Below, in pieces: positions 42,024-42,187 of a stretch of 64,000 bases of DNA; positions within the stretch are counted from its first letter, which is position 1, and each line of letters opens with the position of its first letter. Made by a program: the position numbers and the translations under genes. The notes under the pieces were generated by a model, which was not told the origin of the DNA, did not search any database, and saw only the letters and a program-made list of their open reading frames with translations. The stretch comes from Weeksellaceae bacterium (GTDB lineage: Bacteria; Patescibacteriota; Microgenomatia; UBA1406; GWC2-37-13): NCBI GenBank assembly GCA_041730495.1, contig JBGSBR010000004.1, positions 13,836-77,835 of the forward strand, in the 5' to 3' direction.

Positions 42024-42052
42024 AAAAAAAACCCCCCGGTATTATCCGGGGG
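42024..42052 (-). terminator. Intrinsic terminator in the operon leader
   Basis: Minus strand CCCCCGG-AUAAUA-CCGGGGG followed by eight U, 26 nt upstream of ATG 41997. Confidence 0.7.
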
Positions 42053-42070
42053 ATGTATAGTCGTGGTTAT

Positions 42071-42151
42071 TTAGGCTTGTAAGCCATAACACATACTATC
42101 CCGCCGCAGCGTTCGTCGTCGAACATCGATGACAATTGATAGATGTATCAT
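42071..42151 (-). CDS. Candidate Arg-rich leader peptide MIHLSIVIDVRRRTLRRDSMCYGLQA
   Basis: ATG 8 nt after a -10 box. Five Arg codons (CGA x3, CGG x2) fall within seven codons. The stop lies inside the hairpin that competes with the terminator. Confidence 0.35.
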   Translation of the reverse strand: MIHLSIVIDVRRRTLRRDSMCYGLQA

Positions 42152-42159
42152 ATTGATAT

Positions 42160-42187
42160 AGTATAAAATGTAATCTGCAAATGTCAA
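42160..42187 (-). promoter_or_regulatory. Promoter of the leader transcript
   Basis: Minus strand: TTGACA (42187..42182), 16 nt, TATACT (42165..42160). Confidence 0.55.

Follow-up and report, generated by a model that had tools for sequence, protein, structure and literature searches.

On the minus strand of the window, the 64,000-nt stretch of DNA analysed here, a compact leader at 42187–42024 precedes a conserved two-gene unit consisting of a gene without a recognised domain (gene X) and a DUF917-like gene. We consider it quite probable that this leader is a ribosome-mediated transcription attenuator in which the translation of a short, arginine-rich leader peptide senses charged tRNA-Arg. 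The start of transcription, the translation of the leader open reading frame (ORF), the stalling of ribosomes, the direction of the regulation and the role of the operon are all what we infer from the nucleotide sequence.

The leader opens with a sigma-70-type promoter (42158–42187; minus strand, as for all leader features below), in which TTGACA (42187–42182) is followed, after a 16-nt spacer, by TATACT (42165–42160) or by the overlapping TACTAT (42163–42158). The two versions scored 11/12 and 10/12, respectively, and were the top sites in a 3-kb scan. The −10 box lies 8 nt (TATACT) or 6 nt (TACTAT) before the ATG of a leader ORF (42071–42151) that comprises 26 codons and a UAA stop (ATG, 42151–42149; TAA, 42073–42071) and encodes the peptide MIHLSIVIDVRRRTLRRDSMCYGLQA. 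Five arginine codons fall within a stretch of seven, and all five are CGA or CGG: a CGA CGA CGA run at 42113–42121 and two CGG codons at 42106–42101. With the RNA numbered from the A of the leader AUG (window coordinate = 42152 − n), the CGA run occupies RNA 31–39 and is the proposed site at which a ribosome would stall when charged tRNA-Arg is scarce.

An intrinsic terminator occupies 42024–42054 (RNA 98–128). Its stem, AUCCCCCGG-AUAAUA-CCGGGGGGU (42054–42031), contains 9 bp, 7 of them G-C, and is followed by a U8 run that extends to 42024; the predicted stability is −17.0 kcal/mol. The ATG of gene X lies at 41997, 26 nt past the U-run. A sequence-only reading of this DNA had described the promoter, the leader ORF, the arginine codons, the terminator and the X start codon, and a rereading of the minus strand placed each of them at the same coordinates. 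The terminator is one of just three canonical terminators, with a GC stem and a long U-run, in the entire 64-kb window. The other two are located at 17877, before thrS, and at 43419, after a cupredoxin gene. Two of the three thus sit in 5′ leaders, and most genes of the window seem to end without one.

The leader ORF is predicted to be leaderless: it lacks a Shine–Dalgarno (SD) sequence and, judging from the position of the promoter, its AUG stands at the 5′ end of the transcript. Many mRNAs of this genome are probably of the same kind. An SD-like core was found at only 2 of 48 long-ORF starts, as compared to 5.3% of random positions. By contrast, a −10 box with at least five of six matches ended 5–9 nt before the start codon in 13 of the 48 long ORFs, as compared to 2.7% of random positions. 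Since the leader AUG has the same −10 geometry as these leaderless genes, a transcript beginning with this AUG should be translated. The obg gene has the arrangement TATAAT-6 nt-ATG, and AACT or ACTT precedes many start codons in the window.

The arrangement of the leader and the genes behind it is shared by relatives. The DUF917-like protein has 22 homologues at 35–53% identity, and we gathered 14 other metagenomic loci that carry one. Gene X directly precedes the DUF917-like gene in all 13 loci that reach upstream of the latter. In 12 of these 13, X is itself preceded by a promoter, a short ORF and a GC-rich hairpin with a run of six to nine U; the thirteenth, L017, has no leader before X. 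The short ORF of the 12 relatives begins at or near the predicted transcription start. From the end of the U-run to the start of X there are 0–33 nt in 11 relatives and 103 nt in L019. In six of the loci, the X AUG abuts the U-tract, a separate promoter would not fit, and X must therefore be reached by read-through, as the sequence-only reading had supposed; in three more loci, the distance is within 12 nt.

Seven independent leaders, those of the window and of L008, L009, L010, L011, L015/16 and L019, encode RR or RxR. The arginine-cluster ORFs of the relatives comprise 15–26 codons and encode MSHTESHVSSMNLRKDRRFERAVFV (L008), MEQNFNVIIVDFSKRRRFFEGRGIL (L009), MSSKINRIDRRYHHTSCLAVSLYCG (L010), MNKRLILNHWYRTRFTAVVI (L011), MSTQTFHYSYYYRRNWAR (L015/16) and MLQTYAYFRRFWSQA (L019). 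The codons used for arginine vary among the seven: CGA/CGG; AGA CGC CGU CGG; CGU CGC CGC CGG; AGA AGA CGU; AGA CGC CGC; CGC CGU AGA; and CGU CGU. Over the spans of these ORFs, arginine codons number 24 in the ORF frame versus 10 and 8 in the other frames, and adjacent Arg-Arg codon pairs number 9 versus 2 and 0. In 20,000 composition-preserving shuffles, RR was never present in at least six of the seven leaders (maximum of five, reached once; P < 5e-5). The position of the arginine codons in the RNA structure is not constant. They lie in the strand that pairs with GGGCGG in L008, L009, L011 and L019, in an inner hairpin in the window and L015, and outside any GC stem in L010. Because the arginine codons are kept whatever their structural position, structure alone does not explain them. 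The proposal of the sequence-only reading that the leader ORF and its arginine run sense arginine or Arg-tRNA, which it had suggested checking by conservation and against Rfam, gained support on both counts: the cluster is kept in seven leaders with differing codons, and neither the window leader nor those of the relatives matched an Rfam family at gathering or relaxed thresholds. In the Rfam searches, nothing but tRNAs passed the gathering thresholds, and the highest-scoring local match was to an unrelated Bacillus sRNA, at 27 bits where 60 are required. At relaxed thresholds, matches to His and Phe leaders scored ∼15 bits, which is at chance level, and no arginine leader was found. Neither the window nor the relatives contained a match to the T-box (RF00230).

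A narrower specificity was also considered. A tRNA-Arg(UCG) gene, whose product decodes CGA and CGG, is located at 29240–29313 (plus strand), 13 kb from the leader, and the probability that all five arginine codons would be CGA or CGG is ∼6e-4 from codon usage. However, the relatives use CGU, CGC and AGA, and sensing of this single isoacceptor was rejected as a feature of the family. The exclusive use of CGA and CGG appears to be peculiar to this genome and not conserved.

According to folding predictions, the 145-nt leader RNA folds at −47.9 kcal/mol (z = −4.2 relative to dinucleotide shuffles) and contains the mutually exclusive pairings expected of an attenuator. Region 1 (42138–42151; RNA 1–14), which includes the AUG, pairs with RNA 52–66 (42100–42086) and would act as an anti-antiterminator. 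This region 1:2 helix comprises 14 bp in the minimum-energy folds, forms once RNA 66 is transcribed, buries the AUG and closes a junction around two small hairpins that carry the arginine codons. Region 2 (42086–42106; RNA 46–66), which begins CGG CGG GAU, can pair either with region 1 or, as the antiterminator, with region 3 and the 5′ arm of the terminator. More specifically, CGGCGGGAU (RNA 46–54) pairs with AUCCCCCG (RNA 98–105) and thereby occupies 8 nt of the 9-nt 5′ arm of the terminator, with a duplex energy of −12.8 kcal/mol. The nascent RNA 1–112 has this antiterminator as its most stable predicted fold (−31.0 kcal/mol), comprising pairs 46–48:103–105, 50–54:98–102 and 56–66:82–97. 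The sequence-only reading had drawn the competition differently. The two hairpins that it proposed can both form, but the minimum-energy fold is another. It had the longer hairpin share three C with the terminator, where the antiterminator in fact takes 8 nt of the arm. The pairing of RNA 46–54 with 98–105 excludes the terminator; an alternative register of the middle hairpin (RNA 53–95) coexists with it.

These structures suggest the following mechanism. Transcription would begin at, or a few nucleotides from, the AUG at 42151, and ribosomes would load on this 5′-terminal AUG without an SD sequence. With ample Arg-tRNA, the ribosome would pass the CGA and CGG codons and reach the UAA (RNA 79–81), where it would cover the middle of the antiterminator; alternatively, it would leave the RNA and region 1 would re-pair with region 2. 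The CCCCCGG/CCGGGGG terminator would then form and transcription would end at ∼42024. With scarce Arg-tRNA, a ribosome stalled on the CGA run would keep region 1 off region 2. This would leave CGGCGGGAU free to pair with AUCCCCCG, no terminator would form, and the polymerase would enter X and the DUF917-like gene.

We modelled ribosome positions in all seven arginine-cluster leaders, assuming a footprint that extends at most 12 nt beyond base 1 of the codon in the A site and folding only the RNA 3′ of the ribosome. When the ribosome was placed at the stop codon, the terminator formed in 7/7 leaders and was the sole structure 3′ of the ribosome. With the ribosome at the first arginine codon of the cluster, the terminator was gone from the minimum-energy fold in four of the seven (L009, L010, L011 and L019). 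In the window, L008 and L015, the terminator remained, but a substantial antiterminated alternative exists.

A second leader in the window is built in the same way. The thrS gene (17746–16004, minus strand; TIGR00418, 663 bits) is preceded at 17989–17853 (minus strand) by TTGACA-17-TATAGT-6-ATG and a short ORF encoding MFVYKANIITTTTA. This ORF contains four threonine codons in a row (ACC ACU ACA ACC), located inside the 1:2 hairpin, and the leader has a GGGCG:CGCCC antiterminator and a CCCGCC-CUCA-GGCGGG-U7 terminator. Searching Rfam at this leader revealed neither a T-box nor a Thr leader. The parallel to thrS that had been drawn from the sequence alone was thus borne out, with a threonine-run ORF, an antiterminator and a terminator present in that leader. 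As the amino acid of the run matches the regulated gene, the organism very probably uses leaderless leader-peptide attenuation.

Several observations weigh against an arginine-sensing attenuator, some of them concerning the fold of the window leader. The full-length minimum combines the region 1:2 helix with the terminator (−46.2 kcal/mol), and the alternative register of the middle hairpin is compatible with termination. With a ribosome on the first CGA, the terminator fold is predicted at −29.5 kcal/mol versus −21.3 kcal/mol for the antiterminated one. The terminator is therefore favoured at equilibrium in this leader, and read-through would depend on kinetic trapping. In addition, both CGG codons lie inside the antiterminator arm, such that stalling at them would promote termination; when Arg-tRNA is short, the CGA run would be encountered first. 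In the four leaders whose arginine codons also serve in the pairing with GGGCGG, part of the enrichment could be structural. Furthermore, five independent homologous leaders (L012, L014, L020/L023, L021 and L024) have no arginine run, and arginine sensing is therefore not universal in the family. Gene X is frameshifted in this genome, as described below, which raises the possibility of a decaying locus with a relic leader. Finally, there is no close relative for a base-by-base comparison: Obg, encoded divergently from the leader at 42216–43166 (plus strand), has best matches that are 55–59% identical, the named ones mostly from Candidatus Roizmanbacteria and other Microgenomates, and synteny with the closest Obg relatives examined (L003–L007, 57–59% identical) breaks exactly at the leader.

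In those Obg relatives, a divergent CNNM/CorC gene occupies the position at which the window has the leader, X, the DUF917-like gene, a LOG gene, a response-regulator gene and a type IV pilus cluster. Downstream of obg, synteny is kept, with a Dus-sized ORF following in the window and in the relatives. In an orthologue comparison of the leader, ORF138, which is the N-terminal part of X, alone matched only itself among 5.8 billion proteins; one further match, 31% identical, came from a metagenome-assembled genome of the Omnitrophota. With respect to the leaders that have no arginine run, several of their ORFs end in Arg-stop. L020 and L023 have AUG-UGA at the predicted transcription start, followed by a conserved 35-aa ORF that ends in KGGLFR, and in L014 the entire leader and its terminator are tandemly duplicated. 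Enrichment in leucine was clear only in L024.

Four other explanations of the leader were weighed. In the first, the nascent peptide itself would arrest the ribosome in response to a ligand, as SpeFL does with ornithine and as TnaC and the fungal arginine attenuator peptide also do: an RR-containing chain, acting with free arginine or a related metabolite, would cause the stall, tRNA charging would not be the signal, and the direction of the regulation could be reversed. RR is indeed kept at the level of the peptide, often beside aromatic residues (RRRT, RRRFF, RRFE, RRYH, RTRF, RRNW and RRFW), and a HIRRxxH core is conserved in the leader ORF of speF from Salmonella and E. coli (PMC6386406). 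However, the peptides of the X family range from 15 to 26 residues and cannot be aligned beyond RR, and the five that were scanned had no Pfam match at E ≤ 10, DUF2618 included. The aromatic residues that follow RR are encoded by U-rich loops (CGC CGU UUC, CGC UUU UUU and CGU UUU UGG) and are probably by-products of RNA structure; a peptide-level D-x-RR-aromatic motif is unlikely for the same reason, since its aromatics derive from U-rich hairpin loops. Moreover, where the cluster lies with respect to region 2 and the stop codon is consistent with stalling at the codon level in 7/7 leaders. Overall, an arrest peptide seems unlikely.

In the second, the leader would be a general sensor of translation stress or antibiotics, of the erm, vmlR or hflX type, in which any slow ribosome opens the antiterminator without specificity for arginine. 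Leader peptides with Arg-Leu-Arg that answer stalled ribosomes are described in the literature, several of the peptides here carry an R/K-x-R/K motif (RRR, KRR or RTR), and leaders without an arginine run could work likewise. Against this stand the genes concerned, which are neither resistance nor ribosome-rescue genes and which adjoin argG and argH-like genes in L017 and peptidase genes elsewhere. In addition, L010, L015 and L019 have RR but no such motif, and thrS in the same genome uses a codon run specific to one amino acid. These points make a general stress sensor distinctly improbable.

The third explanation, a riboswitch or protein-binding RNA, would have a ligand stabilise the three-way junction closed by RNA 1–14/52–66 and thereby let the terminator form, with the ORF being incidental. 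The unusual stability of the fold (z = −4.2), the P1–antiterminator–terminator logic, typical of OFF riboswitches, and the retention of the layout in leaders without an arginine run are all consistent with such an RNA. Nevertheless, a MAFFT alignment of the seven leader RNAs revealed conservation only of the terminator and of a G-rich mimic upstream of it, and the junctions, of 1–2 nt, are not conserved. Together with the lack of an Rfam match, this absence of a common core speaks against the ligand-sensing RNA that the sequence-only reading had offered as its alternative. The predicted transcript, moreover, starts with AUG in a genome that appears to translate leaderless mRNAs, and arginine codons are concentrated in the frame of the ORF. 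We regard a ligand-sensing RNA as very improbable. Equally hard to sustain is a separate small gene that specifies an sRNA or a protein of 26 aa and possesses its own terminator, with X transcribed from a weak promoter of its own: the 26 nt between the U-tract and the X AUG do hold TACAAT and TAAATT (13 and 5 nt before the AUG, respectively, within 42016–42003), but the promoter scan found no −35 partner for either, the spacing in the relatives in which the X AUG abuts or lies within 12 nt of the U-tract leaves no room for a promoter, and a pattern scan of the gathered loci, which missed some known leaders, found arginine-cluster leaders only before X.

Gene X, the first gene behind the proposed attenuator, is interrupted in this genome. 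Its N-terminal part (41581–41997, minus strand; ORF138) has 138 codons and ends at a UGA that follows CUU CGG (41589–41584). Its C-terminal part (40848–41576, minus strand; ORF158) lies in the +1 frame and comprises ∼242 codons, with no start codon before 41324. In tblastn searches with the X proteins of L008, L009 and L010, the N-terminal part was 33–35% identical to the first two and 24% identical to the third. The X protein of L008 matched frame +1 at 42015–41587 with 33% identity and frame +2 at 41576–40860 with 40% identity, for a combined E of 5e-70. In all relatives examined (13 loci), X is uninterrupted, ∼380–430 aa in length and without a Pfam domain, and matches to the C-terminal fragment begin at about residue 140–175 of the family members. 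These tblastn data indicate that the ‘unknown genes’ of the sequence-only reading (41997–40848) are really a single gene of ∼380 aa that is split by a +1 frameshift. ORF82 (41584–41336), which is in the wrong frame relative to X, was discarded as spurious.

The X family has an invariant G-x-C-L-F-G motif, and the most conserved motifs of the protein lie in its C-terminal part. Among 1.84 billion sequences, the family had ∼145 representatives, counted as one per 50%-identity cluster. Searches with X against Pfam and the sequences of the Protein Data Bank (PDB) gave no match at relaxed thresholds.

A frame-2 TAA near 41610 and a frame-1 UGA (41583–41581) bound the interval in which the +1 change of frame must occur. 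The alignment is colinear and free of gaps if the shift is placed right after the leucine codon CUU, with the window reading DTNSL|GES IITSV where L009 reads HTNSL ENE ELIAI. The shift site is thus AGU CUU CGG UGA (41592–41581). CGG is a rare codon in this genome (22 of 17,609 codons, or 1.25 per 1000). An independent assembly, contig L002 (Logan run SRR27827407), contains the identical extra base and differs from the window by five SNPs in the C-terminal part of X; three of these are synonymous and the others change I to V and T to S. The conserved C-terminal segment lacks its own start codon, and that of the DUF917-like gene overlaps the X stop (ATGA), an arrangement that allows for a programmed frameshift at a hungry arginine codon. 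In such a Ty1-like +1 frameshift, a CGG short of its tRNA would let the peptidyl-tRNA-Leu slip from CUU to UUC, and arginine would be sensed twice at the locus. We hold this only tentatively, as a rather unlikely explanation of the site. If a slip of this kind does occur, which is similarly doubtful, the C-terminal ∼240 residues of X and the translation of the DUF917-like gene would both hinge on it. A recent insertion of one base, yielding a pseudogene, explains the site equally well: a C placed before GGU GAA creates CGG UGA.

The shift site resembles those of Ty1 (CUU_AGG_C) and prfB (CUU_UGA_C) in that the frame changes by +1 right after CUU, with a rare arginine codon (CGG) in the A-site and then UGA, which recalls the slow-codon logic of Ty1. 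The Ty1 site reaches 40% +1 shifting (PMC5009743). Unlike these, the X site is known from one genome, all other X genes examined are uninterrupted, and no stimulatory element was identified at it.

The second gene of the unit (39841–40851, minus strand) encodes a DUF917-like (S-Me-THD-like) protein with matches to PF06032 and PF20906. Its structural model (pLDDT 90) had a sole structural match, 2o3i, which is an uncharacterised DUF917 protein; a search against PDB sequences gave no match. X and the DUF917-like gene form the conserved unit. The LOG gene, which comes next in the window, has a promoter of its own, TATAAT-7 nt-ATG, and does not belong to the conserved operon, although some co-transcription is possible because there is no terminator between it and the DUF917-like gene. 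With respect to the targets that the sequence-only reading had assigned to the leader, DUF917 was thus retained and LOG was set aside, and control of the pilus genes is unlikely. PADLOC yielded no defence match for the four ORFs of the controlled unit (the X fragments and the DUF917-like gene) and LOG. Its only matches were weak ones to the response-regulator gene further downstream, and an interpretation of the operon as a defence system was rejected.

The genes that accompany X and DUF917 in the relatives may point, indirectly, to peptides and arginine. A PepT-like M20 peptidase gene follows the pair in L009, L010, L011 and L015/16 (TIGR01883; 263–272 bits versus a cutoff of 274). L014, L021 and L022, in which the leader has no arginine run or is off the contig, have genes for a HAD protein and an M29 aminopeptidase instead, and L020 and L023 have a gene of ∼326 aa at this third position. 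In L017, an argH-like gene (Lyase_1), argG (argininosuccinate synthase; 472 bits), X and the DUF917-like gene are arranged head to tail at 110–4529, with ends that overlap or abut. This locus appears to be the most direct genomic link of X-DUF917 to arginine metabolism. On the basis of these peptidase genes, and of argG and the argH-like gene next to the pair in L017, we propose, with low confidence, that the products of the operon hydrolyse peptides or an arginine derivative and so supply arginine. In L008, genes for a LysW-type kinase, an ArgD/LysJ-type aminotransferase and homocitrate synthase adjoin X-DUF917.

Other short ORFs of this type were observed among the gathered loci. L015 has leaderless short ORFs with amino-acid runs and a terminator at 5644–5751 and 7365–7482, encoding MNSRTIAIIISITSLEGGSFA and MNRSLLQFGLLLPVLLTGRACDVGA, and L024 has the same kind of run ORF and terminator at 1211–1319 and 4768–4868, encoding MNSRVNSIIEIIITS and MFRISNQIIIVVRVVGA. 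According to the pattern scan across these loci, the runs in L015 and L024 consist of Ile or Leu; the genes downstream of these ORFs had no match in Pfam. In the window, the element at 24795–24885 (plus strand) has a promoter, TTGACA-17-TATACT (11/12), a hairpin, GGUCCUAAGG...CUUUAGGAC, and a U6 run, and lies ∼20 nt before a gene at 24902–25465 (187 aa, no Pfam match). Its RNA has no 5′ AUG, and it may represent a small RNA or a different type of attenuator.

Attenuation by leader peptides is a textbook mechanism. We know of no arginine-specific classical attenuator with an intrinsic terminator, and of no such attenuator in the candidate phyla radiation (CPR, or Patescibacteria), to which the host of the window belongs, as its Obg matches indicate; none of the papers searched joined CPR with transcription attenuation. 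Like the trpL, hisL, thrL, leuL, ilvL, pheL, pheM-pheST and cysS/hisS upstream-ORF attenuators, the leader described here has a promoter-near short ORF in which codons for one amino acid are clustered. It also shares their mutually exclusive 1:2, 2:3 and 3:4 pairings, an intrinsic terminator just before the structural genes, and a stop codon placed such that a finishing ribosome masks region 2. Attenuators of aminoacyl-tRNA synthetase genes with runs of cognate codons have been described for cysS and hisS, and the thrS leader of the window is of that type. Unlike the classical systems, the X leader would sense arginine, is predicted to be leaderless without an SD sequence, and occurs in a CPR host. 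Moreover, its stall codons lie between regions 1 and 2 rather than within region 1, and the genes that it would regulate are not a recognised biosynthetic operon.

With respect to the start mechanism, the nearest analogues are the mycobacterial leaderless poly-Cys short ORFs, which attenuate operon expression according to the outline given in a preprint (bioRxiv 10.1101/834739) and with which the leaderless leader peptides of Corynebacterium were grouped. As outlined there, the poly-Cys ORFs have in common with the X leader a 5′-terminal AUG, a run of codons for a single amino acid and amino-acid-responsive attenuation of downstream genes (bioRxiv 10.1101/834739). The X leader differs from what that outline describes in phylum, in the amino acid and in having a canonical intrinsic terminator and an explicit antiterminator. 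With respect to arginine, the nearest functional analogue is the speF leader ORF (orf34/SpeFL, DUF2618), in which two consecutive arginine codons sense arginine and pausing at low arginine refolds the mRNA; rare and frequent arginine codons both work, and lysine codons abolish the regulation (PMC6386406). The only trait that this leader shares with that of X is the presence of consecutive arginine codons in a short upstream ORF. The speF system has an SD sequence and a 516-nt leader and involves Rho-dependent termination, unmasking of the ribosome-binding site and decay by RNase G (PMC6386406), whereas the window leader has an intrinsic terminator. In addition, SpeFL has a HIRRTxH core and controls ornithine decarboxylase, whereas the peptides of the X family lack this motif and a Pfam match, and there is no speF gene at the locus.

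What is of interest here is not the class of mechanism, which is classical, but its apparent arginine specificity, the CPR host, the predicted leaderless start and the handle that it provides on X and DUF917. Organisms of the CPR do not grow on their own, and very few regulators can be recognised in them; regulatory signals legible from the sequence alone are therefore one of the few routes by which biology can be assigned to their genes. The leader would tie the rare X-DUF917 pair, which is often accompanied by a PepT-like peptidase, to arginine supply and thereby provides a testable hypothesis for the function of X and DUF917. As a 5′-terminal AUG alone would define the sensor ORF, these leaders may also help in annotating small ORFs in CPR genomes. 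Finally, and more speculatively, bacteria of the CPR that lack SD sequences may use leaderless leader peptides, with codons for Thr, Arg and, in relatives, apparently Ile or Leu, as their main sensors of amino acids.

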